A stretch of 64,000 nt of DNA. Origin: Escherichia phage SP27. The DNA lies in sequence record LC494302.1, one strand, 5' to 3'. Made by a program: the position numbers and the translations under genes. The notes under the pieces were generated by a model that had not been told where the DNA came from, did no database searches, and saw nothing but the letters and a program-made list of their open reading frames with translations. Shown here one piece after another: positions 7,009 through 20,832 of the stretch. Each line of letters starts with the position of its first letter. Positions within the stretch are counted from its first letter, which is position 1.

Positions 7009-7248
7009 ATGGCTAAATCAAAAATGTTCTTAGGTCACAAAAACAAAACTCATTGGAATGTAAGCCTGTGGATTAATAACGATGAGGGATTGTATCGGTT
7101 GGCCCTGGACTTTATTGCCGCCAATACTAATCGCAATGATGCGGCCCGTCATATGATGTTATTTTTAGAACAGACTGGACAAGATAAAACACCGGACGGA
7201 TTCAAATATAGCACTACTGCGATCCGTGCGGCGATGGTTGGAATGTAA
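7009..7248 (+). CDS. hypothetical protein, paralog of 9050..9289
   Basis: shares HKNKTHWNVSLWINN and TPDGFKYSTTAIRAAMVGM with the 9050 gene. Confidence 0.65.
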   Translation: MAKSKMFLGHKNKTHWNVSLWINNDEGLYRLALDFIAANTNRNDAARHMMLFLEQTGQDKTPDGFKYSTTAIRAAMVGM

Positions 7249-7334
7249 TAGAATTTATTTAAAGTACTATCATTTTTTTGCGATAGTACTTTATAATAGT
7301 GTTTTATTCATACACCAACGATAAGGGCAACAGC

Positions 7335-7601
7335 ATGAATATTAAGTATTTTGCGACGCGTGAACAAGCTCGGATCGCCGCACGCCAGGACGGGGCAACG
7401 TTTAAAGATATGGGAGCGGGATCGGCAAGTGGTGAACGTTGGGCCATTGTAAAGCGTAGTACGGCCAGATCTTTACAGTACTGGTTAGCGGCCTTAAAAA
7501 GTCCCGATAGTGTATCGCGTCGAGTGGTAGAAATAAAGCTCGACCGAAAGGGCAACCGCGTGACCGTGTACCGTACTAAAAAGATTGCAGTACTTGAATA
7601 A
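7335..7601 (+). CDS. hypothetical protein, paralog of 20376..20771
   Basis: shares FATREQARIAAR..GETFKDMG and DRKGNRVTVY; start at ATG 7335. Confidence 0.6.
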   Translation: MNIKYFATREQARIAARQDGATFKDMGAGSASGERWAIVKRSTARSLQYWLAALKSPDSVSRRVVEIKLDRKGNRVTVYRTKKIAVLE

Positions 7602-7608
7602 AAAGTAC

Positions 7609-7667
7609 TTGCAAACTATGTTTAATGGCGTATAATGTTTTACATCGAGAGCGGGAACACTTCCCGC
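7609..7667 (+). promoter_or_regulatory. class I early promoter plus 5' stem-loop cassette
   Basis: TTGCAA 7609-7614, TATAAT 7631-7636; hairpin GCGGGAAcacTTCCCGC 7651-7667. Confidence 0.7.
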
Positions 7668-7688
7668 CTATAACCTGGAGTAATAAAA

Positions 7689-7919
7689 ATGACTAATATG
7701 TATATGACTGAAGTTAAAACCGTAAAAGATACTACCACGAATAAAACTACTTACTTACAGCGGATCTGTGGTGTATGGCAACGTATCAGCAAATCAAAGT
7801 ACTTTAAATTAACATCATATGCAAATCGTTCGGATTCATTCAGTACTGAAATAAAAGGTAATAAAGTACACCAATACGGCACTTATTATTATTATAGCCT
7901 GGACGCGATTGCAGTATAA
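7689..7919 (+). CDS. hypothetical protein
   Basis: GGAG RBS; 76 aa. Confidence 0.55.
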   Translation: MTNMYMTEVKTVKDTTTNKTTYLQRICGVWQRISKSKYFKLTSYANRSDSFSTEIKGNKVHQYGTYYYYSLDAIAV

Positions 7920-7957
7920 GCAGTTTACAAATCTTTACAATTGCCGGTATTGACTTA

Positions 7958-7988
7958 TTTTGTCAGTACTGGCATAATGTATTCATTG
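7958..7988 (+). promoter_or_regulatory. class II promoter (TTGACT ... AGTACTGGCATAAT)
   Basis: ATTGACTtattttgtcAGTACTGGCATAAT; no ORF downstream; faces a minus-strand promoter. Confidence 0.45.
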
Positions 7989-8093
7989 GCAGATAAGCCG
8001 TAGCCCATAGGGTGCGGGAGTGTATCTATAGAAAAAGTAGTTTAGTATAGTTACAATTGTGCACCCGGTGGGTTAGCTGTTGTCATGGGGTAT

Positions 8094-8122
8094 ATTATGC
8101 CAGTACTTGATAATGCTGTCAA
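8094..8122 (-). promoter_or_regulatory. minus-strand class II promoter, convergent with the 7958 promoter
   Basis: reverse complement reads ATTGACAgcattatcaAGTACTGGCATAAT. Confidence 0.45.
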
Positions 8123-8168
8123 TACTTTTTTTTTAATATTCAGTACTGAAAACTATTTTTAAAAAGTA

Positions 8169-8196
8169 CTTGCAAACTATGTTTAAAGGCGTATAA
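8169..8196 (+). promoter_or_regulatory. class I early promoter
   Basis: AAAAGTACTTGCAAactatgtttaaaGGCGTATAATGTTTTACATC. Confidence 0.65.
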
Positions 8197-8205
8197 TGTT
8201 TTACA

Positions 8206-8277
8206 TCAGGACGGGGAACGAAATAAGTAACTTCCCGTTAAGTAGCCCAGGAGTAAGGCACACGAAAAACTCCCCTG
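8206..8277 (+). other. conserved structured RNA-like element, copy 1
   Basis: CAGG-ACGGGGAA...TTCCCGT...CTCCCCTG nested complementarity; near-identical copy at 19183-19251. Confidence 0.4.
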
Positions 8278-8287
8278 ATAAAATAGT

Positions 8288-8315
8288 TTGACAATTGTTT
8301 TTAAAAGCGTATAAT
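8288..8315 (+). promoter_or_regulatory. sigma70-like promoter
   Basis: TTGACA 8288-8293, 16 bp spacer, TATAAT 8310-8315. Confidence 0.6.
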
Positions 8316-8347
8316 ACTTACATCAACTACTGAATGAGGGTTACAAA

Positions 8348-8959
8348 ATGAAAACTATCACTACTACTACTTATGTTATGGCTTTTTCTGAATTGAACGC
8401 AGAACAACAAACGTCAGCTATCGAACTGGTTCGGGAACGTGAAAAAAACTTAAACGATGATTATTTTTCTGAAAGTGAAATTGAATACTATAAAGAAACA
8501 GTACTACCGGAATATGGCATTAATGACGCTGAAATACAATTCAGTGGCTTTTGGTCCCAGGGTGACGGTGCATCAATCAGTACTGACCACGTTGACGCAG
8601 TGAAGTTTTTACGCAAGGTAAGAGCATTAACTAAGTATCGCTCAATCCGTCACTTGCTGAATGAAGATGATTTGGCGATGAGTGTAAAGCGTTCGCACTC
8701 CCACTACTCGCATGAGAATACTGTAAGCGGGTACATTGAATCGGCTTACACTGATTTAACCGCAAAACAAGAAACGTTAGTTAATGAGCTTGAGGAACTA
8801 CTCACTGAAACTATTCGTGAATTATCCCGCAAGTTGTACCGTGATTTAGAGAATGCATATGAGGATCAATTCACTACTGAAAACATTACGGCACTGATTG
8901 AGGGTAACGAATATCAATTCAATGTTATTGATGGAGTAGTAGAATCAATCGAATATTAA
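8348..8959 (+). CDS. hypothetical acidic protein
   Basis: 203 aa; GAGGG RBS; no family recognised. Confidence 0.6.
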   Translation: MKTITTTTYVMAFSELNAEQQTSAIELVREREKNLNDDYFSESEIEYYKETVLPEYGINDAEIQFSGFWSQGDGASISTDHVDAVKFLRKVRALTKYRSIRHLLNEDDLAMSVKRSHSHYSHENTVSGYIESAYTDLTAKQETLVNELEELLTETIRELSRKLYRDLENAYEDQFTTENITALIEGNEYQFNVIDGVVESIEY

Positions 8960-8971
8960 TTTAAAAAGTAC

Positions 8972-9031
8972 TTGCAAACTAAGTTTAAAAGCGTATAATA
9001 CTTTATATCGAGGCGGGGAGTGGTTCCCCGC
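8972..9031 (+). promoter_or_regulatory. class I early promoter plus 5' stem-loop cassette
   Basis: TTGCAA 8972-8977, TATAAT 8994-8999; hairpin GCGGGGAgtggTTCCCCGC 9013-9031. Confidence 0.65.
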
Positions 9032-9049
9032 TCAAACGAGGATTTAAAA

Positions 9050-9289
9050 ATGGCTAGTACTAAAACTTACAACGGACACAAAAACAAAACTCATTGGAAT
9101 GTAAGCCTTTGGATTAATAACGGTGAGTCATTGTATCGGCTTGCTCAAAGTTGCATCGCACAAAGTAGAACTAAAGATATTGCTGCGGAATGTATGTACC
9201 GCAGATTAAAAGCCAACGGTACTACTACAACGCCGGACGGCTTTAAGTATAGCACTACTGCGATCCGTGCTGCAATGGTTGGAATGTAA
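9050..9289 (+). CDS. hypothetical protein, paralog of 7009..7248
   Basis: start at ATG 9050 (MASTKTYNGHKNKTHWNVSLWINN); conserved C-term. Confidence 0.65.
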   Translation: MASTKTYNGHKNKTHWNVSLWINNGESLYRLAQSCIAQSRTKDIAAECMYRRLKANGTTTTPDGFKYSTTAIRAAMVGM

Positions 9290-9328
9290 TATTCAGTACT
9301 GAGATAATGGCGGGAACTATTACCCGCC
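9279..9328 (+). promoter_or_regulatory. promoter plus stem-loop
   Basis: TTGGAA 9279-9284, AGTACTGAGATAAT -10; hairpin GGCGGGaactattaCCCGCC 9309-9328. Confidence 0.4.
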
Positions 9329-9346
9329 TTTACTGAGGGTTATCTA

Positions 9347-9634
9347 ATGAGTAAAGTAATAAAGTACAATGTGTTAAGCAAATCATTGTCTATCAGTGAA
9401 TGCACCGATGGTTTTTGGATGTACGATGAAACGCGTGGCATGAATTTAGCTATGCGTGCAAAAACTGCTGAGGCGGCGTATATTCAAGCACTGGAATACT
9501 ACCAGGAACGTTTGAAGGAAGTAGAAGAAGATTATAAAAGCCTCAAAGCGAAAGTAGATCATTTCGTCGGTCAATTCGTGGAAGACAACGACGAGGACGG
9601 GCACTACTGCGACCGTTGCGGATCTTACAGTTAA
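9347..9634 (+). CDS. hypothetical protein
   Basis: 95 aa; C-terminal CDRCGSYS. Confidence 0.55.
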   Translation: MSKVIKYNVLSKSLSISECTDGFWMYDETRGMNLAMRAKTAEAAYIQALEYYQERLKEVEEDYKSLKAKVDHFVGQFVEDNDEDGHYCDRCGSYS

Positions 9635-9651
9635 GTACTAAGGATTATATA

Positions 9652-9864
9652 ATGAGTGATTTAATTGAACGTATCAAAGAGCTTGAAGAAAAAGAATTGC
9701 AGTTGATCGGGTTACGGAATAAAGTATTCCATGATTTAGGTGGCTTTATTAATGCCTGGGATAGTGGCGATCCTGATGCGTTACCTGCTAACCGCCAGGC
9801 GATGATCAATGATGTGCGTGGTGTCTTTGATTATGTTTTAAAAGTACTAGACACTAAGCAATAA
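9652..9864 (+). CDS. hypothetical protein
   Basis: start at ATG 9652 (MSDLIERIKELEEKE). Confidence 0.55.
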   Translation: MSDLIERIKELEEKELQLIGLRNKVFHDLGGFINAWDSGDPDALPANRQAMINDVRGVFDYVLKVLDTKQ

Positions 9865-9925
9865 AGGCGTATAATACTTTATATTGGTACTGACAAACAT
9901 TATAAGCGATGCAGGAGCTTTAATC

Positions 9926-10111
9926 ATGACAACATTATCTGAGGTTATCCGCGATCAAGCTGCAAAGGCTGGAATGACTGTTATCAATGTAGGGATCAAG
10001 ATTGAGATCTCCCCTAACGAGTTGCAAGGGATTCCCGATCCTACTAGCTGGGATCGTGCTGGGCGAATGATGAGTAATGCTTCATTACTGGACGGTACAA
10101 AATTTAATTAA
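9926..10111 (+). CDS. hypothetical protein
   Basis: start at ATG 9926 after AGGAG RBS (MTTLSEVIRDQ). Confidence 0.5.
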   Translation: MTTLSEVIRDQAAKAGMTVINVGIKIEISPNELQGIPDPTSWDRAGRMMSNASLLDGTKFN

Positions 10112-10118
10112 AAAGTAC

Positions 10119-10178
10119 TTGCAATTAGTTTTCAGTACTGTATAATGGTTTACATCAAAGGGAGAAATGGTTCTCCCT
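10119..10178 (+). promoter_or_regulatory. class I early promoter plus 5' stem-loop cassette
   Basis: TTGCAA 10119-10124, TATAAT 10141-10146; hairpin AGGGAGAAatggTTCTCCCT 10159-10178. Confidence 0.65.
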
Positions 10179-10196
10179 GGTAATGAGGAAAATACA

Positions 10197-10418
10197 ATGG
10201 CTAATATCACTACTCTTTCCCAACTGGAAGCACTGGTTAAATCTATGCGGGAACATGCCGACAAAATCGGCGTACAAGATCCAGCCGTTTGCTTCTGCGA
10301 CGAATTGAATGATGATACACTGGTAATAGCAGAAGTCCAGGACGTTTCTAACTATTCCTCGCGTTACACTGGCGGCGTAGCAAATAAAGGTGACTTCTGT
10401 TTATACCTTACAAAATAA
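10197..10418 (+). CDS. hypothetical protein
   Basis: start at ATG 10197 (MANITTLSQ) after GAGGA RBS. Confidence 0.55.
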   Translation: MANITTLSQLEALVKSMREHADKIGVQDPAVCFCDELNDDTLVIAEVQDVSNYSSRYTGGVANKGDFCLYLTK

Positions 10419-10453
10419 CAACGCGGGGAGATAATAACTCCCCGTTACTTTTT
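10419..10453 (+). terminator. intrinsic terminator
   Basis: AACGCGGGGAGataataaCTCCCCGTT stem followed by T-run. Confidence 0.5.
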
Positions 10454-10524
10454 CAGTACTGAATCATTTAATAGACGGATCTCGGCACCCGGTGGGTTAG
10501 TGACTGTTTCGTCTTGATGTAGTA

Positions 10525-10553
10525 ATTATGCCAGTACTGGATGCACTTGTCAA
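10525..10553 (-). promoter_or_regulatory. minus-strand class II promoter
   Basis: reverse complement reads TTGACAagtgcatccAGTACTGGCATAAT; transcribes leftward through GCACCCGGTGGG element. Confidence 0.45.
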
Positions 10554-10586
10554 CAACTATTTTTCAAATACTTTTTATTAAAATAC

Positions 10587-10640
10587 TTGCAATTAGTTTT
10601 TAAACGCGTATAATGTTTTGCATAGGGGGAGCGGTTCCCC
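10587..10640 (+). promoter_or_regulatory. class I early promoter plus 5' stem-loop cassette
   Basis: TTGCAA 10587-10592, TATAAT 10609-10614; hairpin GGGGGAgcggTTCCCC. Confidence 0.6.
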
Positions 10641-10661
10641 TGGTAACTAAGGAATAATAAA

Positions 10662-10898
10662 ATGCTTGAACAAATCAAATCAACGTCTGCGAATGTAACG
10701 GGAACGGTTGTACACTTTACTAGTGATGAATCGCGGGGCGTTCCCTATTGTGCTGTACATGTAAACACTGATGGCAACTACTGGTTTACGGTTTACGGAT
10801 CATATTCATTTGGACGGCCAGGGCATCAAAAAATTCTGGATAAAGTACAACCAACGGGTAAAAATATCACTGCCGAAATGTTTTATAAAAAATCATAA
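10662..10898 (+). CDS. hypothetical protein
   Basis: 78 aa downstream of cassette. Confidence 0.55.
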   Translation: MLEQIKSTSANVTGTVVHFTSDESRGVPYCAVHVNTDGNYWFTVYGSYSFGRPGHQKILDKVQPTGKNITAEMFYKKS

Positions 10899-10903
10899 AG
10901 TAC

Positions 10904-10962
10904 TTGCAATTAGTTTTTAGTACTGTATAATATTTTACATCGCAAGGGGAAACGGTTTCCCC
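10904..10962 (+). promoter_or_regulatory. class I early promoter plus 5' stem-loop cassette
   Basis: TTGCAA 10904-10909, TATAAT 10926-10931; hairpin GGGGAAacggTTTCCCC 10946-10962. Confidence 0.65.
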
Positions 10963-10982
10963 TGGTAACTAAGGATAATCAA

Positions 10983-11282
10983 ATGAAAATTGCAATCATC
11001 GCCCTGGCTTTATCTGTTTCCTCTTTCGCTGTTAATGCGTCGTTAGATGTAAGTAGTGAAAAATTCATTCAGTGCACTGTTGCAATGACCGATGAAAGAA
11101 CTGGCGAGATTGTATTAAAGGATTTAGAGATCCAGCCGGAAGCATTTAAAAACGGCCCGTTCCATGAAGAAGACGAAAACGGTAGCACGACAATTTATTA
11201 TGATGCCAGTTCCAAGCGTGGATCGGTCACTGTAATGGATACTGAGAAAGTAACACACACAGGCGTTATTAATTGCCGTTGA
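10983..11282 (+). CDS. small secreted or periplasmic protein (predicted signal peptide)
   Basis: N-terminus MKIAIIALALSVSSFAVNAS is signal-peptide-like (basic start, hydrophobic core, A-x-A-like site). Confidence 0.55.
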   Translation: MKIAIIALALSVSSFAVNASLDVSSEKFIQCTVAMTDERTGEIVLKDLEIQPEAFKNGPFHEEDENGSTTIYYDASSKRGSVTVMDTEKVTHTGVINCR

Positions 11283-11303
11283 TAGATACTACGGGGTAAC
11301 ATC

Positions 11304-11534
11304 ATGACTAAGCGAATTGTTTTACTTAACGAAAGCAGTACTACACAACTACTTAACGCCGTGCATTATGATATTGAAACGAGCGTTAATCTTATCAGTA
11401 CTGTAGTACTGTTGGACACTGGAAAGGTCGCCAATGATAAAGCGATTGCAGGTATATTAACGGATCTTGAGCCTGGTAGCAGTGCACCCATAACGTTAAA
11501 TGGTAAAGTGTTTAATATTTTACTCACTGATTAA
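11304..11534 (+). CDS. hypothetical protein
   Basis: 76 aa; followed by terminator. Confidence 0.55.
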   Translation: MTKRIVLLNESSTTQLLNAVHYDIETSVNLISTVVLLDTGKVANDKAIAGILTDLEPGSSAPITLNGKVFNILLTD

Positions 11535-11540
11535 GTACAT

Positions 11541-11568
11541 AGCCCACCAGGTGGGCTTTTTTGTTTTT
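11541..11568 (+). terminator. intrinsic terminator
   Basis: AGCCCACCaGGTGGGCT hairpin followed by TTTTTTGTTTTT. Confidence 0.75.
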
Positions 11569-11767
11569 ATAGTATCGTAGTACTGAGATACTTTGAAAAT
11601 AGTTTTAAGAAAGTAGTTGACATTACCACAGAAAAGCGTAGAATGTATTACATCAAGACGGGGAGCACTAAGTAGACCGCCAGTAAGTCGAACGAAAAAC
11701 TGGACACGTCGAGAAAACTTTGATACACTAATAAACGTAAACTAAACTTTAATTGAGGATTTATAAA

Positions 11768-12250
11768 ATGGCTAATGTAAAATCATTCATCAAAGCACTG
11801 GTAGCAAATGAAACTAACGTCGCGGCTGAGATCCTGGCTGAACTGGATAACGATACCATGAAAGCGGTACGCAATAATTTTAACATCGCGTACAGTACTG
11901 CGAAAGAACTACAAGCAAATAAAGCGGCAGAAATTGAAGCGGCAAAGGCGGCCCGTGAAGCAGAACTACAAGCAACAATCGAAAGTATCCAGGCGGCGGT
12001 GTCTGGATTGGATCTGGAAGTGGTTGTGGAAATGGCACATAAAGCCCTGGCGGTTAAGTATGGTGAAGATAAGCCAGAATCTAAACCTAAAAAATGGATT
12101 CAAGAACGTGTTACTGTAGTACTTGATAACGGGGAAGAACATATGATTCCTGTACGCGGTAACTGCATTGCGGTAGTACTGGACGCTATCAAAGAAAGCG
12201 GTATGACTCGCGAGGAATGGATCGAAGCTCATCGCAAAGTTGAAGCATAA
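11768..12250 (+). CDS. hypothetical protein
   Basis: start at ATG 11768 (MANVKSF) after GAGGA RBS; Ala/Glu-rich central helix. Confidence 0.55.
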   Translation: MANVKSFIKALVANETNVAAEILAELDNDTMKAVRNNFNIAYSTAKELQANKAAEIEAAKAAREAELQATIESIQAAVSGLDLEVVVEMAHKALAVKYGEDKPESKPKKWIQERVTVVLDNGEEHMIPVRGNCIAVVLDAIKESGMTREEWIEAHRKVEA

Positions 12251-12271
12251 CAATTAAAGTACTGAATCACT

Positions 12272-12300
12272 AGCCCACCTTAAACAGTGGGCTTTTTTGT
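12272..12300 (+). terminator. intrinsic terminator
   Basis: AGCCCACcttaaacaGTGGGCT followed by TTTTTTGT. Confidence 0.7.
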
Positions 12301-12453
12301 GTCTGTAGTATTCCAGTCCACCAGCACCGCCTAGAATCGATTCTAACGCATTAAACTGATTATCTGATGCATTGCCCTAGCTGGTGGCGTGAAGGTCGTT
12401 AGAATGCGATTGAGAGCGTTTAAAGTATTTTGCAAAAAGTAATAAAAAGTACT

Positions 12454-12512
12454 TGCACGATTAAGAGATTAGCGTATAATGTTTTACATCGAGAGGGGGA
12501 AACGGTTCTCCT
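12454..12512 (+). promoter_or_regulatory. class I early promoter plus 5' stem-loop cassette
   Basis: TTGCAC 12454-12459, GCGTATAAT 12475-12480; hairpin GGGGGAAacggTTCTCC. Confidence 0.6.
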
Positions 12513-12535
12513 TCCAAATCAAAGGAATCAAAACA

Positions 12536-12763
12536 ATGGCTATTATCATTACTCGCGTATCTGGTACTACTGGCAACGAACAAGTAGTTGCAGTCATTAC
12601 CAACAAGGAAGGTGCGGAATTGCAAAATGCAATGAATACCTGGGCCGTTAATGAGTTCGGTCAGTGGGCAAGTGTAGCATACATTGAAACCTATCAAGTG
12701 CCGTCGATTAGTTTAACTGATTTGGGCGTTGAGCGTATCCTTTGCCTGGATGAATTAAATTAA
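12536..12763 (+). CDS. hypothetical protein
   Basis: start at ATG 12536 (MAIIITRVSG). Confidence 0.55.
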   Translation: MAIIITRVSGTTGNEQVVAVITNKEGAELQNAMNTWAVNEFGQWASVAYIETYQVPSISLTDLGVERILCLDELN

Positions 12764-12772
12764 AAAAGTACT

Positions 12773-12832
12773 TGCAAAGTAAATCGAATAAAGTATAATA
12801 CATTACATCAAGGGGAGAAATGGTTCTCCCCA
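12773..12832 (+). promoter_or_regulatory. class I early promoter plus 5' stem-loop cassette
   Basis: TTGCAA 12773-12778, TATAAT 12794-12799; hairpin GGGGAGAAatggTTCTCCCC 12813-12832. Confidence 0.65.
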
Positions 12833-12848
12833 CTACAAGGAAACTAAA

Positions 12849-12992
12849 ATGAAAACTTGTCAATGTGGTCAGAAATCTATTACGGGTTTAAAGCGGGGCG
12901 TTGCTCTTTGCCAGTACCATTATAATTTACAAGTATGGGGTAAAGAATGGGCCGACCAGGTGGAAGCAGCAAAGAAAGCAAAAAGTAAGTAA
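12849..12992 (+). CDS. hypothetical small Cys-containing protein (47 aa, below ORF-track cutoff)
   Basis: read by hand: MKTCQCGQKSITGLKRGVALCQYHYN...; own cassette and RBS. Confidence 0.45.
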   Translation: MKTCQCGQKSITGLKRGVALCQYHYNLQVWGKEWADQVEAAKKAKSK

Positions 12993-13011
12993 AAATATTA
13001 TCACAGTACTA

Positions 13012-13040
13012 TTGACATAGTTTGATAGTACTGGCATAAT
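13012..13040 (+). promoter_or_regulatory. class II promoter
   Basis: CAGTACTATTGACAtagtttgatAGTACTGGCATAAT; no 5' hairpin. Confidence 0.6.
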
Positions 13041-13073
13041 AGATTTTATCAAGACAACTAAGAGGAAATTAAA

Positions 13074-14092: not shown

Positions 14093-14097
14093 TTAAT

Positions 14098-14357: not shown

Positions 14358-14376
14358 ACTAATTAAGGAATATGAA

Positions 14377-14523: not shown

Positions 14524-14526
14524 TAC

Positions 14527-14586: not shown

Positions 14587-14604
14587 AATAACAGGAGAAA
14601 CAAA

Positions 14605-14757
14605 ATGAAACAATACAACGCTCGGTTTGATGTTACTATCGGCAACGGTAAAGGTCAATTCTCTTTCAGTACTCGACGCAGTTATACAGAAAACTTCCTG
14701 CGTAATTGTGCACTGACCGCCGCACAAATTAAACATTACTTTCAGGCTAAAAAATGA
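14605..14757 (+). CDS. hypothetical small protein (50 aa)
   Basis: start at ATG 14605 (MKQYNARFDV) after AGGAGA RBS. Confidence 0.45.
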   Translation: MKQYNARFDVTIGNGKGQFSFSTRRSYTENFLRNCALTAAQIKHYFQAKK

Positions 14758-14843
14758 GATCATTAGCTTATTACAGTTCGGCCCTGGTCGGTGCATTGAT
14801 CGCGGCGTTGTTAGTAACCTATCTATTCTTTATGGTGATTTAA
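14754..14843 (+). CDS. possible small hydrophobic peptide (29 aa)
   Basis: read by hand: MRSLAYYSSALVGALIAALLVTYLFFMVI; ATGA overlap. Confidence 0.3.
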   Translation: MRSLAYYSSALVGALIAALLVTYLFFMVI

Positions 14844-14981
14844 ATGAATCCTAACGGTATAATTTACAGTACTCCTAAAACGAAAGCAGACAAGGTAAAC
14901 GCTAAAAAAGCGAAAGTAAAGGAGTACATCAAGCAAGGCATGACGCGAAAGGCGGCGATTCTAAAAGCTAAAAATAAATGA
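14844..14981 (+). CDS. possible small Lys-rich protein (45 aa)
   Basis: read by hand: MNPNGIIYSTPKTKADKVNAKKAKVKEY... Confidence 0.3.
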   Translation: MNPNGIIYSTPKTKADKVNAKKAKVKEYIKQGMTRKAAILKAKNK

Positions 14982-14987
14982 AAAAAG

Positions 14988-15009
14988 TGGTTGACTTCGG
15001 TCAGCCATT
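14988..15009 (+). terminator. intrinsic terminator (first part of repeated intergenic module)
   Basis: GGTTGAC-TTCG-GTCAGCC hairpin with tetraloop, then TTTTGC. Confidence 0.5.
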
Positions 15010-15112
15010 TTGCTATTATATATTCATTGAGAGATAGCTCACTAGCCCACAGGGTGCAGGAGTGTATCTATTGTATAATGTTTGAGTACTTAAAACTATT
15101 TTTAAAAAAGTA

Positions 15113-15172
15113 CTTGCAAACTATCTCAATAAGCGTATAATGTTTTACATCGCAAGGGGAAACGGTTTCCCC
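15113..15172 (+). promoter_or_regulatory. class I early promoter plus 5' stem-loop cassette
   Basis: TTGCAA 15113-15118, TATAAT 15135-15140; hairpin GGGGAAacggTTTCCCC 15156-15172. Confidence 0.65.
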
Positions 15173-15192
15173 TAGTAATAAGGAAACAAATC

Positions 15193-15534
15193 ATGACTAT
15201 CTCAATTGCTCAATCTAACTTTGAAAACGAAATCATCGCCCAGGCACTGCGTTTAAATGATGGTCGGGCCGAAATCAATTACGGTTTCAATTCAGGCGGT
15301 TGTGAAAAATATCAGTACTTTATAACTGCTGATGGCTGTGTCCTGGGCATCAATACAGTTATTGTAAACATCCAAAAAATTAATTTCAATGATCCAGACG
15401 ATAGCCAGTTTTACATCACTGGCGTAGACGTGAACTATGAGGATGACTCACTAACTGATGATCACACTGGCGAGCGGTTAGAAAGTGCATACGGTGAAGA
15501 TGATTATCAGTCCGGTCCAGAAGATTTCGAATAA
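15193..15534 (+). CDS. hypothetical acidic protein
   Basis: 113 aa. Confidence 0.55.
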   Translation: MTISIAQSNFENEIIAQALRLNDGRAEINYGFNSGGCEKYQYFITADGCVLGINTVIVNIQKINFNDPDDSQFYITGVDVNYEDDSLTDDHTGERLESAYGEDDYQSGPEDFE

Positions 15535-15547
15535 TATAAAAAAATAG

Positions 15548-15606
15548 TTTGACAATAGATTATAGTACTGTATAATGTTTTACATGAAGGGGAGAATAGT
15601 TCTCCC
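15548..15606 (+). promoter_or_regulatory. promoter plus 5' stem-loop cassette (TTGACA variant)
   Basis: TTGACA 15548-15553, TAGTACTGTATAAT -10; hairpin GGGGAGAAtagTTCTCCCC. Confidence 0.65.
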
Positions 15607-15627
15607 CACTAACAGAGAGAAAACAAA

Positions 15628-15840
15628 ATGGCTAATATCCGGTCGAAATTAAAAAATGCAAAACAAGTTTTATTTTCAGATCATGAATACTTTAATAAAG
15701 ATATTACAGGAGTTACAAGTATCAAGGAAGTAAAAGAAAAAACCGGCGTTTTGTGTGATGTGCGATTAGTTGGAACATTTGGGAATAACGTGCTATATCG
15801 CTGCGGTGATTACAATTTTACACTGACTATCATTAACTAA
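15628..15840 (+). CDS. hypothetical protein
   Basis: 70 aa. Confidence 0.55.
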   Translation: MANIRSKLKNAKQVLFSDHEYFNKDITGVTSIKEVKEKTGVLCDVRLVGTFGNNVLYRCGDYNFTLTIIN

Positions 15841-15868
15841 AAATATTATCACAGTACTATCAAAGCTA

Positions 15869-15897
15869 TTGACAATGATTGATAGTACTGGCATAAT
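15869..15897 (+). promoter_or_regulatory. class II promoter
   Basis: CAGTACTATcaaagctATTGACAatgattgatAGTACTGGCATAAT. Confidence 0.6.
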
Positions 15898-15932
15898 AAC
15901 TTTTATCAACTACACTACTAAGGAATTAAAAA

Positions 15933-16112
15933 ATGGCTATCATCGCAAAAACTGAAATCGTTGGTCTGGATTCTATCATCATGACGTTTGAAGATCAAAA
16001 AGGTATGTATGTAGTTTCCTATGGTGATTATGTTCGGGAGTATGAAACGGTAGACGAAGCCTTTGAAAGTTATATTCGCCAGGTGAATAAAGCATACGAC
16101 GACTACCGCTAA
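15933..16112 (+). CDS. hypothetical small protein (59 aa, below ORF-track cutoff)
   Basis: read by hand: MAIIAKTEIVGLDSIIMTFEDQKG...; AAGGA RBS. Confidence 0.45.
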   Translation: MAIIAKTEIVGLDSIIMTFEDQKGMYVVSYGDYVREYETVDEAFESYIRQVNKAYDDYR

Positions 16113-16139
16113 AATATATTACCAGTACTATTAAATCTA

Positions 16140-16168
16140 TTGACAATGTTTGATAGTACTGTATAATA
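16140..16168 (+). promoter_or_regulatory. class II promoter
   Basis: CAGTACTATtaaatctATTGACAatgtttgatAGTACTGTATAAT. Confidence 0.6.
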
Positions 16169-16211
16169 AGTTTTATAAACAGTAGTTAACTTAACCTAAG
16201 AGAGAAATAAA

Positions 16212-16355
16212 ATGATCGCACTGGATTCATTCATCGACGCAGTACTGGCAAAAACTGGCGAGGATCTGACCGCAGAACAATACGCGATGATCGAACAATG
16301 TCAACAGGACGGTAAATCGGTGAAAGATACTGTTAAGATTATCCGCAAGATGTAA
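16212..16355 (+). CDS. hypothetical small protein (47 aa, below ORF-track cutoff)
   Basis: read by hand: MIALDSFIDAVLAKTGEDLTAEQYAMIEQCQQDG...; followed by terminator. Confidence 0.45.
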   Translation: MIALDSFIDAVLAKTGEDLTAEQYAMIEQCQQDGKSVKDTVKIIRKM

Positions 16356-16361
16356 GATTAT

Positions 16362-16390
16362 AGCCCACTGGTTAACGCTGGTGGGCTTTA
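16362..16390 (+). terminator. intrinsic terminator
   Basis: AGCCCACtggttaacgctgGTGGGCT hairpin, weak T-run. Confidence 0.5.
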
Positions 16391-16460
16391 ATTCATCACC
16401 CTATACAATGCCAGTACTCAACCGTTTATCTCGTTAGAATGCGTTACAGGACGTTTAACA

Positions 16461-16658
16461 ATGATTAGCATGAAATCAGTACAAAAACAAATAGAAACAT
16501 TATCAAAAATTAAACGTAAACAGTACTCCTTAGAATATACAATCAATGGTAACTATCATCTAATGAAAGAGAATAATTTTATAGTCATTGATGAATCATT
16601 GCAAATCATTAGTATAGTACTGAAAGCATTAATCAATGACAGAAAAAAATTAAAATAA
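16461..16658 (+). CDS. hypothetical protein
   Basis: 65 aa. Confidence 0.45.
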   Translation: MISMKSVQKQIETLSKIKRKQYSLEYTINGNYHLMKENNFIVIDESLQIISIVLKALINDRKKLK

Positions 16659-16662
16659 TCTA

Positions 16663-16691
16663 TTGACAATATCATCCAGTACTGGCATAAT
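16663..16691 (+). promoter_or_regulatory. class II promoter
   Basis: ATTGACAatatcatccAGTACTGGCATAAT; followed by about 300 nt leader with TGATCA repeats. Confidence 0.55.
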
Positions 16692-16989
16692 ACTTACACC
16701 AAGACGAGAACGTCACTAACCCATAGGGTGCACAAATGTAACTGTATAATATTGATCAAAAAATGATCTGATCAATACTTGATCAATTTGCGTAAAGTAG
16801 TATAATTCTATGCAGTTGGTTAGACGAAAGGTTATGATTAGTAGTGCAAGTGTATAAAAATTTTCATGGTGTATCGTTCCGCACATATGGGGATGAATAT
16901 GTGGTATCATGTGGATTGGAAAAAGTAAGAACAAGTAATATTATTGTCGCATTACAGTACTATAGTATTTTTATAATGAGGTTAAAATA

Positions 16990-17247
16990 ATGGCTGTAGG
17001 ATTCGCGAAAGATGGGGCCGAACAAGACGAGATTAACGCAGTGATTCAGGCTGCCGTTAACCACGCTAGAAAGCAAATTAACGCACAAATAGAATCACTG
17101 ATACATTGCCTCGACTGCGGCGATATAATCCCTGAGAAACGACGCCAGGCCGTTAAGGGATGTAAGTACTGCATAACTTGCCAGGAGGATCATGATAGTA
17201 CTTTTAAACGTCCCCCGCGTAATTGTTGGCATAGATCTATGAGATAA
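16990..17247 (+). CDS. TraR/DksA-family C4 zinc-finger protein
   Basis: INAQ...CLDCGDIIPEKRRQAVKGCKYCITCQ matches the TraR core INAH...CEACGNPIPEARRKIFPGVTLCVECQ as I recall it. Confidence 0.75.
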   Translation: MAVGFAKDGAEQDEINAVIQAAVNHARKQINAQIESLIHCLDCGDIIPEKRRQAVKGCKYCITCQEDHDSTFKRPPRNCWHRSMR

Positions 17248-17253
17248 AAAGTA

Positions 17254-17281
17254 TTGACAGTACTGAAAGATAGTTTATAAT
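17254..17281 (+). promoter_or_regulatory. sigma70-like promoter
   Basis: TTGACAgtactgaaagatagttTATAAT. Confidence 0.55.
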
Positions 17282-17310
17282 ATTTTATATCTTAACTGAG
17301 GATTGAAATC

Positions 17311-17667
17311 ATGGGAATACAACATATCACGCGTACTACTGACAATGGCGAGATCACTGGCTATCAAGTACAGGGCAAAGTAGCACAATTGCAGTACTGG
17401 TTTGTTAAACGTGGAATCATTGCACCGGATCTTGATTATGACCGTGTAGCGTTTATTGATTCTCTTTATGTTGATCCTGATAGTCGGGGCAATGGTGAAG
17501 GTAACGAATTAATGAATGCCTTTATTGATGCCGCCGATGATTCAGATTGTATCATCTTAGAATGCGATACGGGAGAAGATAACGCCTTTAATCTTAAAGA
17601 ATGGTACGAAGGTTTCGGATTCGAGGTATTGATAGATAGTGAATATCCTATCATGATTTTATCATAG
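17311..17667 (+). CDS. GNAT-family acetyltransferase-like protein
   Basis: LYVDPDSRGNGEGNELMNAF resembles the acetyl-CoA-binding R/Q-x-x-G-x-G/A motif of GNAT enzymes; 118 aa. Confidence 0.45.
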   Translation: MGIQHITRTTDNGEITGYQVQGKVAQLQYWFVKRGIIAPDLDYDRVAFIDSLYVDPDSRGNGEGNELMNAFIDAADDSDCIILECDTGEDNAFNLKEWYEGFGFEVLIDSEYPIMILS

Positions 17668-17669
17668 TA

Positions 17670-17727
17670 CTTGCATTTAGTTTTCAGTACTGTTATAGTA
17701 CTTACATCAAGGGGAAACATCTTCCCC
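17670..17727 (+). promoter_or_regulatory. class I early promoter plus 5' stem-loop cassette
   Basis: TTGCAT 17670-17675, TATAGT -10; hairpin GGGGAAacatcTTCCCC 17711-17727. Confidence 0.55.
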
Positions 17728-17745
17728 TACTAAGAGGAAATGAAA

Positions 17746-17934
17746 ATGGAAAACTTATCAAGTATTTTAGTACAAGATGATTTCGGTAATCCTGGAAGTG
17801 CTATCATTGTTCGGGGCAATAAAGCAACGTTTGTTATTGCTGGTGGACCCGTACAGCGTAGCATTAAAAATAATGCTGTTACCATTAATAATGTACGCTA
17901 TCGCTTAGATAAAGAATTAATTCATAAACTGTAA
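17746..17934 (+). CDS. hypothetical protein
   Basis: start at second ATG (MENLSS), 7 nt after GAGGA. Confidence 0.5.
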   Translation: MENLSSILVQDDFGNPGSAIIVRGNKATFVIAGGPVQRSIKNNAVTINNVRYRLDKELIHKL

Positions 17935-17961
17935 TATTAATTTAATAGAGGATAACAATAA

Positions 17962-18285
17962 ATGTACATTCATACTACTATCACAAAGGAAGTCCGTTGC
18001 CAGTTCGAAAGTATTCCGGGCGTATGTTTCATCACTGGTACGTTTTCCCCTGGTGATCGTGATAATCCAGTACTGTTACAATTACGCCATCCATCATGGG
18101 ATAAAGCATTTGATCTACCGTTGAATGAATTCGCAACTACTGCTGAAAAGTACATTAAAAATATTCGCGAGAATGATCGACTATTCATTAATGCTTTTAG
18201 TGATTCCGCGTTAAGCGAGATCCACGGCGTATTGGTTGCAATCATGGAATCAATGCAGAAAACTAAATTCAAACAAGGTGAATAA
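17962..18285 (+). CDS. hypothetical protein
   Basis: 107 aa; GAGGATAA RBS region. Confidence 0.55.
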   Translation: MYIHTTITKEVRCQFESIPGVCFITGTFSPGDRDNPVLLQLRHPSWDKAFDLPLNEFATTAEKYIKNIRENDRLFINAFSDSALSEIHGVLVAIMESMQKTKFKQGE

Positions 18286-18291
18286 AAACTA

Positions 18292-18351
18292 TTGACAATA
18301 GATTATAGTACTGTATAATAAGTTACATGAAGGGGAGAAATGATTCTCCCC
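18292..18351 (+). promoter_or_regulatory. promoter plus 5' stem-loop cassette (TTGACA variant)
   Basis: TTGACA 18292-18297, TATAAT 18314-18319; hairpin GGGGAGAAatgaTTCTCCCC 18332-18351. Confidence 0.65.
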
Positions 18352-18368
18352 ACTGAGAGGAAAGAAAA

Positions 18369-18581
18369 ATGCAAGGTCAACTAATCGTTCGTAAATGGTC
18401 TGATACTAACGAAAAACCGTGGGATGTACAATACATCGGACCGGATGGGGTATCACGTTATCAGCCTGGCGTAACGCATAGTACTGAGCAATATGCCGCC
18501 GCTCACCGCGAACGCCTGTTAGAATCCATGAAACAGGGATTCTGTGAAAAATTCATTCAAGATCATTGGCTGAAAGATTAA
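18369..18581 (+). CDS. hypothetical protein
   Basis: 70 aa. Confidence 0.55.
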   Translation: MQGQLIVRKWSDTNEKPWDVQYIGPDGVSRYQPGVTHSTEQYAAAHRERLLESMKQGFCEKFIQDHWLKD

Positions 18582-18598
18582 TAGAAGGAGTACAGCTT

Positions 18599-18691
18599 AT
18601 GCAAATGAATCCGATGATTATTGTTTTAGCTGTACTTATGATCATTCATGCAATTGTAGAAGTATTAACGCAATCAGGAGTAATAAAATGA
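18599..18691 (+). CDS. possible small membrane peptide (30 aa)
   Basis: read by hand: MQMNPMIIVLAVLMIIHAIVEVLTQSGVIK; AAGGAG RBS 8 nt upstream. Confidence 0.4.
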   Translation: MQMNPMIIVLAVLMIIHAIVEVLTQSGVIK

Positions 18692-18861
18692 TTCAAGTAG
18701 AATTATCAGTACTGAAAGATCTGTTTTATCGGTTAGGTACTACTGGAGAGTATCCTAAAAGTGATACCGCAAAACTTTTTGTATCACTCGATTTATGGCA
18801 ACGCGAACAATTAGTAATGTCCTGGCGTAAAGGTAAAGCAGATAGCGAGGTGAAAGCATGA
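18688..18861 (+). CDS. hypothetical small protein (57 aa)
   Basis: ATGA overlap with previous; read by hand. Confidence 0.4.
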   Translation: MIQVELSVLKDLFYRLGTTGEYPKSDTAKLFVSLDLWQREQLVMSWRKGKADSEVKA

Positions 18862-19007
18862 AAGAATTCTTATTCGAAGTAGTGTTTCAAGGTGTCGGTA
18901 GTAATCAATTGATTCGCTCAAGTGGTTACAATGTTAACCAGGCATGGAATAACATTAAACAAATGTACCCGAACGCTATCACATATCGCAACCCAAAAGA
19001 AGTTTAA
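18858..19007 (+). CDS. hypothetical small protein (49 aa)
   Basis: ATGA overlap with previous; read by hand. Confidence 0.4.
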   Translation: MKEFLFEVVFQGVGSNQLIRSSGYNVNQAWNNIKQMYPNAITYRNPKEV

Positions 19008-19021
19008 AAATAATTGAAAAA

Positions 19022-19043
19022 GGGATTGACTCCGGTCAGTCCC
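19022..19043 (+). terminator. intrinsic terminator (first part of repeated intergenic module)
   Basis: GGGATTGAC-TCCG-GTCAGTCCC hairpin preceded by A-run, followed by TTTGC. Confidence 0.55.
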
Positions 19044-19145
19044 TTTGCTATTATATACGCATAGAAACAAATCAGCCCACCGGGTGCATAAATGTATCTA
19101 TTGTTTGCTGGTGGCTAGTACTGAAAACTATTTTTAAAAAAGTAC

Positions 19146-19173
19146 TTGCATTGTACTTAGAATCAAGTATAAT
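19146..19173 (+). promoter_or_regulatory. class I early promoter
   Basis: AAAAAGTACTTGCATtgtacttagaatcaaGTATAATGTTTTACATC. Confidence 0.65.
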
Positions 19174-19182
19174 GTTTTACAT

Positions 19183-19251
19183 CAGGACGGGGAACGAAAC
19201 AAGTAACCCCGTTAAGTAGTCCAGGAGTAAGACATACGAAAAACTCCCCTG
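19183..19251 (+). other. conserved structured RNA-like element, copy 2
   Basis: near-identical to 8206-8277 with a few substitutions; same flanking promoter arrangement. Confidence 0.4.
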
Positions 19252-19261
19252 ATAAAATAGT

Positions 19262-19289
19262 TTGACAATAGAAAGTAAACGAGTATAAT
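19262..19289 (+). promoter_or_regulatory. sigma70-like promoter
   Basis: TTGACA 19262-19267, 16 bp spacer, TATAAT 19284-19289. Confidence 0.6.
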
Positions 19290-19322
19290 ACTTACATCAA
19301 CCACTGATAAGGAAACATAAAA

Positions 19323-19598
19323 ATGCGGATTCTACTGACAGCTAACGAAATCGAACAAGTACTGACTACTAACCTGGAAGACTGGAAACGTGAAGCAGAT
19401 ATCCAGGCGGTTCAATGGTTAAATGATAAGTTAACGCCGGATGACTTAAGCAAGATTGTAGATCCTCAATTCTACGAAGATATCCACGACACCGCGTTAA
19501 GCGTCGAGGATGTACTAGATAAGCACTTTATTGATACTGATTTGCAGGTTTACGGTCGTAAAAACTTTATCACTATTCACGACATTTACAATAATTAA
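19323..19598 (+). CDS. hypothetical acidic protein
   Basis: 91 aa. Confidence 0.55.
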   Translation: MRILLTANEIEQVLTTNLEDWKREADIQAVQWLNDKLTPDDLSKIVDPQFYEDIHDTALSVEDVLDKHFIDTDLQVYGRKNFITIHDIYNN

Positions 19599-19601
19599 GT
19601 A

Positions 19602-19664
19602 TTGACAAAGTATCTTAGTACTGTATAATAGTTTACATCGAGTGAGGGGAAACGGTTCCCCTCC
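19602..19664 (+). promoter_or_regulatory. promoter plus 5' stem-loop cassette
   Basis: TTGACA 19602-19607, TATAAT 19624-19629; hairpin GAGGGGAAacggTTCCCCTC. Confidence 0.65.
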
Positions 19665-19686
19665 TAACAAAGAGAGAGAAATAAAA

Positions 19687-19869
19687 ATGGCTAAGTGCAC
19701 TATCTGCAAGAAAGAAATAGTATTAGTTCCAAGTGCCCGTGAACGTGCCGCTCGGTTCGGTGGCAAAGCGTCAGACTATACAAAAATGTTTACTGCCCAT
19801 ACAGCTTGCCAGGTAGCAAAACGTTCACAAGAAAGCGTAGAATTAATGCGTAAACTTTCCAAAAAATAA
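19687..19869 (+). CDS. hypothetical small protein with CxxC...HxxC
   Basis: start at ATG 19687 (MAKCTICKK); possible zinc-binding residues. Confidence 0.5.
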   Translation: MAKCTICKKEIVLVPSARERAARFGGKASDYTKMFTAHTACQVAKRSQESVELMRKLSKK

Positions 19870-19871
19870 GT

Positions 19872-19933
19872 ATTGACAAAGTATCTTAGTACTGTATAAT
19901 AGTTTACATCAAGTGAGGGGAATGGTTCCCCTC
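19872..19933 (+). promoter_or_regulatory. promoter plus 5' stem-loop cassette (near-duplicate of the 19602 cassette)
   Basis: identical GTATTGACAAAGTATCTTAGTACTGTATAATAGTTTACATC; hairpin GAGGGGAAtggTTCCCCTC. Confidence 0.65.
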
Positions 19934-19956
19934 CTAACTAAAAGAGAGAAATAAAA

Positions 19957-20280
19957 ATGGCTATGATCCTTGCCCAGAAAGTAGAATTGAAAATTGTAAC
20001 CTCCTTTGACATTAACGTTAATCGGTGGACTGATTCACACGGCAATACTTACCACTCTTGCTACGTGTCTGCGTTAATTGGCGACCGCTGGGAAGACCTG
20101 GGACACGAAACCTTTACATACGGTTACGGTACACAAGGCGAATACACGGGCTTGGAGATCATTAAAGAAACCGTTATAGGTTTCAACCCGAAAGAAAAAG
20201 TTATTCACCGCATCGAGGAAGAGATCAACAAAGAAATAACAGTTCGCTACCACGATGTAAAACGTAAGAAAGACATGTAA
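19957..20280 (+). CDS. hypothetical protein, paralog of 13074..13418
   Basis: shares GNTY, YGYG and DVKRKKD. Confidence 0.6.
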   Translation: MAMILAQKVELKIVTSFDINVNRWTDSHGNTYHSCYVSALIGDRWEDLGHETFTYGYGTQGEYTGLEIIKETVIGFNPKEKVIHRIEEEINKEITVRYHDVKRKKDM

Positions 20281-20302
20281 TAGAATCCATTTAAAGTACT
20301 AT

Positions 20303-20331
20303 TTGACATTGCCCAGATAGTACTTTATAAT
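20303..20331 (+). promoter_or_regulatory. sigma70-like promoter
   Basis: TTGACAttgcccagatagtacttTATAAT. Confidence 0.5.
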
Positions 20332-20375
20332 AGACTCTAACTTGTAGTACTAACTCAACTAATAGGATGTATACC

Positions 20376-20771
20376 ATGATTACTAAATTCTACGCTACCC
20401 GTGAAGCTGCCCGTATTGTTGCACGCGAGGAAGGCGAAACATTTAAAGACATGGGCAAAGATGCACCGAAAGGTCAACGCTGGGCCGTACAGTTCAAAGA
20501 GATCTCTGATATTGTGAATTCACCGGAGCCAGTACTAACAGCAGCAGAACTAAAACGAGCGGATTTACTGGCGTCAATACTTGATGCACAAGATGAGTTT
20601 ATCGCTGATTCTGATATCAAAGTACAGACAAACCACACCGCTTGGACTCACGCGGATCACCTGGCAAACCTTAAGCGTCCAAGTGAACTGATTCGCAACC
20701 AGAAAGAGATCCGACACGACCGTAAGGGTAATCGTGTAACAGTATACAGTAAACGCCGCCAGGTTATCTAA
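20376..20771 (+). CDS. hypothetical protein, paralog of 7335..7601
   Basis: start at ATG 20376 (MITKFYATREAARIVAR); C-term HDRKGNRVTVY. Confidence 0.6.
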   Translation: MITKFYATREAARIVAREEGETFKDMGKDAPKGQRWAVQFKEISDIVNSPEPVLTAAELKRADLLASILDAQDEFIADSDIKVQTNHTAWTHADHLANLKRPSELIRNQKEIRHDRKGNRVTVYSKRRQVI

Positions 20772-20829: not shown

Positions 20830-20832
20830 AAA

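Follow-up and report, generated by a model that had tools for sequence, protein, structure and literature searches.

Paired small genes in the early region of Escherichia phage SP27: slot occupants and probable modular shuffling around promoter-hairpin cassettes

In T4-type phages, promoter/stem-loop (PeSL) cassettes are described as homology patches at which ORFans are inserted, deleted or replaced (Arbiol et al., 2010, PMC2839356; Comeau et al., 2014, PMC4122927), and the published stem-loops occupy five positions and have terminator action (PMC2839356, PMC4122927). In the related framework of modular evolution, morons are regarded as accreting by illegitimate events, with no need for conserved flanks (Botstein, 1980; Hendrix et al., 2000, as discussed in PMC2839356). 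Here, we analyzed a stretch of 64,000 nucleotides from Escherichia phage SP27 (LC494302.1; hereafter the window), in which three pairs of similar small genes are dispersed over an early region: 7009 and 9050 (family 1), 7335 and 20376 (family 2), and 13074 and 19957 (family 3). A first-pass annotation explained these pairs by cassette-level duplication and transposition. Two of the three apparent paralog pairs (pairs 1 and 3) are co-resident alleles from a pool common to phage families, and we consider it likely that the pairs are the present occupants of conserved slots and not fresh duplicates. The early region as a whole is probably shaped by PeSL-type modular shuffling, with slot occupants that include alleles exchanged with a Stephanstirmvirinae/Vequintavirinae pool.

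The likeness to the T4-type system lies in a unit of about 90-100 nt that comprises an AT tract, sigma70 boxes, a GGGG...CCCC stem-loop, a Shine-Dalgarno (SD) sequence and ATG. As in T4-type phages, the unit is dense among small non-essential ORFans, and it bounds single-ORF insertions, deletions and replacements with chimeric junctions inside it. The genomes differ, however, being those of RaK2-like jumbo phages and rV5/phi92-like phages instead of the Tequatrovirus type. Also different are the stem-loop, which lacks a U-tract and is fixed 12-14 nt downstream of the -10 box (in the 5' leader), the region, which is a putative direct terminal repeat, and the site of some exchanges, which fall at conserved ends of coding sequences and not in the cassette. 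With morons, the region shares the gain, loss and exchange of single genes with their own expression signals among unrelated phages of the same host, but the flanks here are conserved repeats and the overlaps at junctions indicate homologous exchange.

Three gene pairs inside a putative terminal repeat

The window derives from a jumbo phage of Escherichia that belongs to the genus Asteriusvirus (the PBECO4/121Q/phAPEC6 group). The direct terminal repeat (DTR) annotated in vB_Ec-M-J (1-21525) aligns to the window from 4822 to about 25750 at 94-97% identity, and records that retain both DTR copies carry each family in four places. From this homology and the doubled places in long records, we infer a DTR of about 21 kb in the window; all six genes sit inside it, given where the vB_Ec-M-J repeat maps. 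A DTR of 20,993 bp has been confirmed experimentally by restriction digests in fEgEco12 (PMC13070987). Between 6.5 and 21.5 kb, the best records are 94-97% identical to the window yet cover only 30-74% of it, and the region is thus mosaic within the genus.

About 60 small genes make up the repeat, most of them autonomous promoter-hairpin-SD units, and in the reading we favor this is likely to be the early region, transcribed by host RNA polymerase. T5-like phages encode their pre-early genes in the terminal repeat, and the two systems are alike in having small host-polymerase-transcribed genes, of unknown function or involved in host takeover, in a long, first-entering terminal repeat. To our knowledge, there is no sequence relationship between the T5-like pre-early genes and those of the window, and we know of no two-step DNA transfer in Asteriusvirus.

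Pairwise BLASTP confirms the similarity in all three pairs: the 7009 and 9050 proteins are 65% identical over the full 79 amino acids (E = 2e-36), the 7335 protein and the product of the 20367/20376 open reading frame (ORF) are 35% identical (E = 2e-19), and the 13074 and 19957 proteins are 32% identical (E = 2e-11). The members of a pair always belong to one PHROG. Pfam DUF7249 (PF23907, gathering cut-off 27 bits) matches the 7009 protein with 44.5 bits and the 9050 protein with 50.7 bits. The six proteins are ordinary members of DUF7249/PHROG 871, PHROG 8127 and PHROG 6246, with high-scoring full-length matches; the two-slot layout and the allele exchange are what the analysis of the window adds to these families. 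All motifs quoted in the first-pass annotation are found in the proteins, and its coordinates are correct, including the start at 20376, which has proper SD spacing, in place of the longer ORF start at 20367. The order of the genes is shuffled and non-adjacent, as it had reported (F1a, F2a, F1b, F3a, F3b, F2b, where the number denotes the family).

The surrounding genes had been called otherwise unique. At the protein level this is the case within 4.8-25.9 kb, where all-versus-all searches (BLASTP and phmmer) and family profile hidden Markov models (HMMs) identify the three pairs as the sole paralogs, and where the additional all-versus-all matches are read-through translations of repeated non-coding cassettes. 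The claim fails for the whole window, and is therefore true only locally, because large tandem paralog arrays lie outside this interval. Further members of families 1, 2 or 3 were not identified by the profile HMMs in the window or in the fetched loci.

The tandem arrays greatly exceed the three dispersed pairs in extent. All are on the + strand, with pairwise identities of 25-60%: about 15 genes of around 60 amino acids just before the DTR (1027-4548), at least 30 genes of around 70 amino acids just after it (25848-33372), and at least 15 genes of 110-165 amino acids further on (40326-50568).

Occupants of the paired slots

We mapped slots and alleles by searching ten loci with the six proteins (local tblastn), and built neighbour-joining trees. 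Each family has two slots that keep their position across Asteriusvirus, and the occupants vary by genome. Coordinates of the genes and associated features are collected in Table 1.

In family 3, the 13074 protein is 98% identical to the slot-1 copy of TH47 and 84% identical to gp127 of Phapecoctavirus nepoznato. This allele is nearly universal in Stephanstirmvirinae; within Asteriusvirus it is present only in the window, in TH47 and in one 346-kb contig. Slot 1 of WPEC3, 121Q, PBECO4 and ECO103 is filled by a third family 3 allele (32% identical to 13074 and 39% to 19957), and slot 2 is always filled by the 19957 type, whose occurrence is limited to 36 Asteriusvirus-type records. The family tree joins the alleles resident in slots 1 and 2 as sisters (bootstrap 83) and nests 13074 in the Stephanstirmvirinae clade, among sequences from phages of about 150 kb (bootstrap 85-100). 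The junctions of the replacement are located at the SD/ATG on the 5' side and at the conserved GATGTTAAACGCAAAAAAGAT (DVKRKKD) on the 3' side; the DNA of the window upstream of the gene body and from GATGTTAAACGCAAAAAAGAT onward is of the WPEC3 type. In TH47, the 13074-type allele is preceded by a different cassette and promoter. Since 13074 nests in the Stephanstirmvirinae clade and the body alone is replaced, pair 3 in the window is best described as a resident paralog plus a xenolog. We take these comparisons to show two old sister paralogs in the genus, of which the slot-1 body was replaced by a Stephanstirmvirinae-type allele in the lineage of the window and TH47.

The two family 1 genes, here termed the alpha (7009) and beta (9050) alleles, are 81% identical in nucleotide sequence at the 5' end and 89% at the 3' end, with only 38% identity in the core; the conserved columns of the family lie outside this core (codons 33-59). 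The alpha allele shares 95% of its amino acids and 88% of its nucleotides with gp128 of Phapecoctavirus nepoznato (the codon differences are 19 synonymous and 4 nonsynonymous), and is equally near to gp128 and to the 121Q ortholog (90%). The beta allele is 93% identical at the nucleotide level to its counterpart in Phapecoctavirus 3A1_SA_NWU, and the 81 nt of its core are 100% identical. The presence of beta in Phapecoctavirus led us to reject its confinement to jumbo phages. Alpha and beta are alternatives at a single locus in Phapecoctavirus, with the same cassette in front and a family 3 gene adjoining. In the Vequintavirinae phage A7_1, both classes are present at a distance of 1.8 kb, together with differently ordered homologs of a further five window genes. 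Within Asteriusvirus, slot 2 of EJP2 combines an alpha-like core with beta-like ends, slot 1 of TH47 and EJP2 holds a third (gamma) class, and in 121Q unrelated DNA takes up the slot 2 position. Both alpha and beta share 93-95% identity with Phapecoctavirus genes and 65% with each other, and therefore lack the mutual closest relationship expected of in-genome paralogs. As the alignments show, pair 1 represents two allele classes that also circulate as single-locus alternatives in Phapecoctavirus, with cores that are swapped between conserved ends.

The reverse history is possible for pair 1, with an old alpha/beta duplication in the jumbo lineage that was later donated to Stephanstirmvirinae and Vequintavirinae, where the two classes now compete for a single locus. 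Consistent with this, most Asteriusvirus genomes hold both classes in fixed slots, and Phapecoctavirus genomes have one of several classes at one locus. However, the Stephanstirmvirinae locus is the more diverse (classes about 95, 82, 71, 67 and 62% identical to alpha), family 1 is widespread elsewhere (phages of Ralstonia, Vibrio and Aeromonas, and cyanophages), and Asteriusvirus itself varies, as described above for TH47, EJP2 and 121Q. We regard this direction as unlikely.

Family 2 occurs in RaK2-like jumbo phages only. Its slot clades are specific to jumbo phages, with 100% support for the slot-1 clade, and the presence of both slots throughout the genus implies that the duplication is old. 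The N- and C-terminal blocks are conserved around about 45 amino acids that are unique to the long copy. The approximately 90 nt upstream of the two genes are reciprocal-best matches (identity 0.66), and their homology begins with the shared string ATGTAATAGAATYYATTTAAAGTACTAT...GATAGTACTTTATAATAG at the stop codon of the preceding gene and extends through the -10 box; the promoter of 7335 retains its -10 box and has a decayed -35 box. In EJP2, slot 1 holds a mosaic copy of 128 amino acids with a middle that resembles the long form, from which it follows that the 88-amino-acid form is derived by internal deletion. Thus, alignment and phylogeny show pair 2 to be a genuine old duplication of promoter and gene, confined to jumbo phages, after which the 7335 copy lost an internal segment.

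The explanation given by the first-pass annotation, that in all three pairs a promoter-plus-gene cassette was copied within the lineage, inserted elsewhere and then inherited vertically, holds in part. The shared upstream region of pair 2, the sister relationship of the resident family 3 alleles and the genus-wide conservation of the two-slot layout are in its favor, and closest-relative comparisons fit paralogy in pair 2 and among the resident family 3 alleles; duplication plus transposition in this genome suits pair 2 only. For pair 3 as present in the window, whose members are not each other's closest relatives, in-lineage copying is refuted: 13074 nests in Stephanstirmvirinae and is present in few Asteriusvirus genomes, and the promoters of 13074 and 19957 are unrelated (rank 9 and 20 of 38). 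Copying also accounts poorly for pair 1, given the Phapecoctavirus counterparts of both alleles, including the identical core; the cassettes of 7009 and 9050 are reciprocal-best at 0.80, but this similarity ties with the cassette of a neighbouring gene. Downstream flanks are unshared in all three pairs (identity 0.46-0.49). As an account of all three pairs, copying within the lineage is therefore very unlikely, although mobility at the level of the cassette is well supported, in that the genes are autonomous promoter-hairpin-SD units and repeated cassettes flank the indels between relatives. We also considered an ancestral F3-F1-F2 module, an idea prompted by the adjacency of F3 and F1 in Stephanstirmvirinae and of F1 and F2, and F3 and F2, in the window. 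This is unsupported, as F2 is alone in the Klebsiella RaK2-like locus and no locus has all three adjacent.

Finally, chance or compositional similarity, or an assembly artefact from a collapsed terminal repeat, might be suspected for short proteins in an AT-rich terminal repeat with much repeated DNA, but has a negligible probability given the BLASTP E-values, the placement of each pair in one curated family, the location of both members of every pair inside a single DTR copy at only 32-65% identity, and the 94-100% conservation of pair members in dozens of independent genomes.

Table 1. Positions of the paired genes and associated features in the window
Feature	Position	Strand	Remarks
Family 1 slot 1, alpha allele, 79 amino acids	7009..7248	+	DUF7249/phrog_871
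Family 1 slot 2, beta allele, 79 amino acids	9050..9289	+	DUF7249/phrog_871
Family 1 variable core, alpha version, codons 33-59	7105..7185	+	beta counterpart 9146-9226
Cassette of 7009 gene	6922..7011	+	R1 model 87 bits; hairpin -14.2 kcal/mol
Cassette of 9050 gene	8963..9052	+	R1 model 83 bits; hairpin -15.6 kcal/mol
Family 2 slot 1, short form, 88 amino acids, without about 45 internal residues	7335..7601	+	phrog_8127
Family 2 slot 2, long form, 131 amino acids from ATG 20376 (ORF opens 20367)	20376..20771	+	phrog_8127
Upstream region of 7335 gene	7249..7334	+	homologous to 20281-20375 upstream of long copy
Promoter of long copy (20376)	20303-20331		promoter scan
Family 3 slot 1, Stephanstirmvirinae-type xenolog, 114 amino acids	13074..13418	+	phrog_6246
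Family 3 slot 2, resident Asteriusvirus allele, 107 amino acids	19957..20280	+	phrog_6246
Replaced segment, body of 13074 gene	13089..13341	+	DNA unmatched in WPEC3, 121Q, PBECO4, ECO103
Hairpin-less TTGACA-17-CATAAT promoter, family 3 slot 1	13012..13040	+	same in WPEC3
Cassette of 19957 gene	19864..19954	+	89-92% identical to neighbouring cassette 19593-19684
Putative direct terminal repeat (DTR), early-gene region	4822..25750	+	homology to vB_Ec-M-J DTR

Promoter-hairpin cassettes and breakpoints

Nearly every small gene in the region is headed by a cassette of about 90 nt that consists, in order, of an AT-rich tract, AGTACTTGCAA or TTGACA, a 16-nt spacer, TATAAT, the near-invariant TTTACATC, a GC hairpin, the SD and the ATG. 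The cassette alignment defines sigma70-like boxes (TTGCAA or TTGACA, 16 nt, TATAAT) with AAAAAGTAC upstream. TTTACATC is the conserved start region of the cassette, and the GGGG...CCCC hairpin, of the form GGGGAGAA-ATGG-TTCTCCCC and variants (GGGGAGAA-loop-TTCTCCCC), lies in the 5' leader. Using a covariance model (R1) built from 18 copies, we identified 29 cassettes in the window, all within 5177-24918, on the gene strand and ending at SD-ATG, along with 246 across the fetched loci, every one on the gene strand. Between 6 and 22 kb there are 9 perfect (12/12) promoters, and promoter-like sites number 82 versus 52 expected.

The hairpins have predicted energies of -14 to -16 kcal/mol (z -2.2 to -2.9) and leave the SD free. 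In the stem, 90% of the cells are paired and 5/5 pairs are changed on both sides (compensatory), in an alignment that was itself fitted to the model. No U-tract follows the hairpins and a terminator scan of the window misses them; the hairpin is more likely to act as a 5' mRNA stabilizer or attenuator than as a classical terminator. An Rfam scan of the whole window returned no match. The same architecture is present in a Klebsiella RaK2-like phage, and lower-scoring cassettes were identified in Phapecoctavirus nepoznato and phi92, including directly upstream of the homologs of the 7009 gene. The R1 model found no copy in the T4-like loci searched (L006, L009).

Comparison of the window with six Asteriusvirus loci places 36 of 71 unique block ends on detected cassettes, which make up 16% of the region (binomial p = 1.5e-11), and hairpin-less promoters account for many of the other ends. 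At about 20 single-gene indels the junctions overlap by 55-108 nt, and in these a single cassette of the window aligns to both cassettes that flank the extra gene of the other genome. About a dozen genes are common to the window and Stephanstirmvirinae coliphages (Phapecoctavirus, phi92), in different orders, and 12 early genes of the window have homologs (45-95% amino acid identity) in two Stephanstirmvirinae loci. An IMG/VR scan anchored on a DksA/TraR-like zinc-finger early gene (16990-17247) recovered few Asteriusvirus loci. This gene, a further early gene common to different phage families, is 64-73% identical to genes from T4-like phages of about 170 kb in IMG/VR.

We propose that co-infecting phages would exchange genes by homologous recombination, for which the cassettes of about 90 nt and the conserved gene termini would serve as homology arms, as in PeSL-mediated modular shuffling. 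The features by which PeSLs are recognized are present, i.e., sigma70 boxes with an AT tract, a stable stem-loop, a repeated unit that ends at SD-ATG, and indels bounded by it. The genome is not of the T4 type, as the window is from an Asteriusvirus, and the cassettes are missing from the T4-like loci. Thus, the system is PeSL-like in its working and falls outside the set described for T4-type phages.

Several points weigh against modular shuffling of this kind. Selection for viable recombinants alone would likewise enrich breakpoints at intergenic cassettes, and the junction overlaps, as read from the alignments, are the only direct sign of apparently homology-driven events. The promoter flavor of the cassettes differs between phage families, and crossovers between families are consequently more likely at gene ends and at hairpin/SD patches than across the whole cassette. 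Recombination intermediates, transcripts and protein functions were not observed. The trees are neighbour-joining trees of short proteins, and that of family 1 (79 columns) is poorly resolved, with many nodes below 50% bootstrap; its length does not suffice to root the alpha/beta split, and with it the direction of transfer and a possible first origin by duplication.

Protein families, implications and further repeats

Sequence gives little indication of function for the families of the six proteins: Pfam offers only a DUF, each PHROG is labelled 'unknown', and profile searches of the PDB gave no match. We found no paper on DUF7249. The AlphaFold2 (AF2) models are confident: that of family 1 has four helices (predicted local distance difference test score, pLDDT, 87.2), and that of family 3 has a three-stranded sheet and helices (pLDDT 82.6). 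The variable core of DUF7249 corresponds in the model to the end of helix 2 and to helix 3, and could plausibly form a specificity surface. Based on position and promoters, the three families probably encode early, dispensable host-takeover or anti-defence proteins.

A more speculative idea is that conserved gene ends and shared cassettes constitute a selected device for allele exchange that is common to three unrelated families, that the two slots of the jumbo phages carry two specificities, and that AGTACT is where a factor acts to regulate or promote the exchange. If so, co-infecting phages would swap the hypervariable cores of host-takeover or anti-defence proteins (e.g., helix 3 of DUF7249). 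We think this is very unlikely.

We identified no paper on these cassettes or on this sharing of genes in Asteriusvirus. What is seen here is phage genome plasticity of an already described kind, in phage groups for which we found no description, and it extends PeSL-like, homology-guided shuffling beyond T4-type phages to a jumbo-phage terminal repeat and to the rV5/phi92 group. Apparent paralogs in the accessory regions of phages can be co-resident alleles from a pool that crosses families, so that counting them as duplications misreads their history. Three conserved, uncharacterized families of early proteins are pinpointed, of which DUF7249, with its swap-prone core, is a candidate for studies of host takeover or anti-defence. 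Asteriusvirus and Phapecoctavirus are candidates for phage therapy, and the comparison documents recent gene flow between possible cocktail partners.

The interval 4550-6450 (about 1.9 kb) has no convincing gene, spans the inferred left end of the DTR (about 4822), and is rich in CAGTACTG palindromes; the GC skew switches sign there. Just outside the repeat, upstream of the equivalent of the window start, the WPEC3 (1-13000) and EJP2 (1-12240) loci carry 10-12 RCC1/BNR-repeat-like genes of about 1.1 kb each, in tandem and on the opposite strand.

The starts that ORF callers assign to several genes are affected by the cassettes. The ORFs that begin at 6497 and 12479 have a spurious 'MFYI...' leader, due to an ATG within the -10 region of the cassette (TATAATGTTTTACATC), and the real ATGs, preceded by an SD, are at about 6554 and 12536. 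The same leader is present in the family 1 database proteins of 97-98 amino acids.

We also identified longer non-coding repeats that include the cassette. The segments 8156-8333 and 19132-19307 form a duplicate of about 180 nt (83-89% identity), which consists of a cassette promoter, a structured spacer of about 75 nt (-19 to -21 kcal/mol, z -1.5 and -2.9; no Rfam match), and a perfect TTGACA-16-TATAAT promoter before genes 8348 and 19323. From its predicted structure, this segment could be a small RNA or leader. An intergenic repeat of about 190 nt occurs at 14969-15161, 19005-19196, 21997-22189 and 24254-24355, with partial copies near 6067, 8001 and 16717. Its features are a hairpin of 12 bp (AAAGGGATTGACTCCGGTCAGTCCCTTT) and a conserved TAGCCCAYAGGGTGC box, with a cassette after them, and in stop-to-stop translations it gives rise to spurious similarity between proteins.

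Five GC-rich palindromes (CCCGGG, CCATGG, AGGCCT, AGCGCT and ACCGGT) are absent from the window. By far the most enriched 6-bp palindrome is AGTACT, with 270 copies versus about 21 expected in the whole window (12.6-fold). Its copies are densest at 4700-6420 and across 4822-25750; they favor spots that abut the -35 and -10 boxes of early promoters, and most lie outside the cassettes. The longer CAGTACTG occurs 65 times, versus 0.65 expected.

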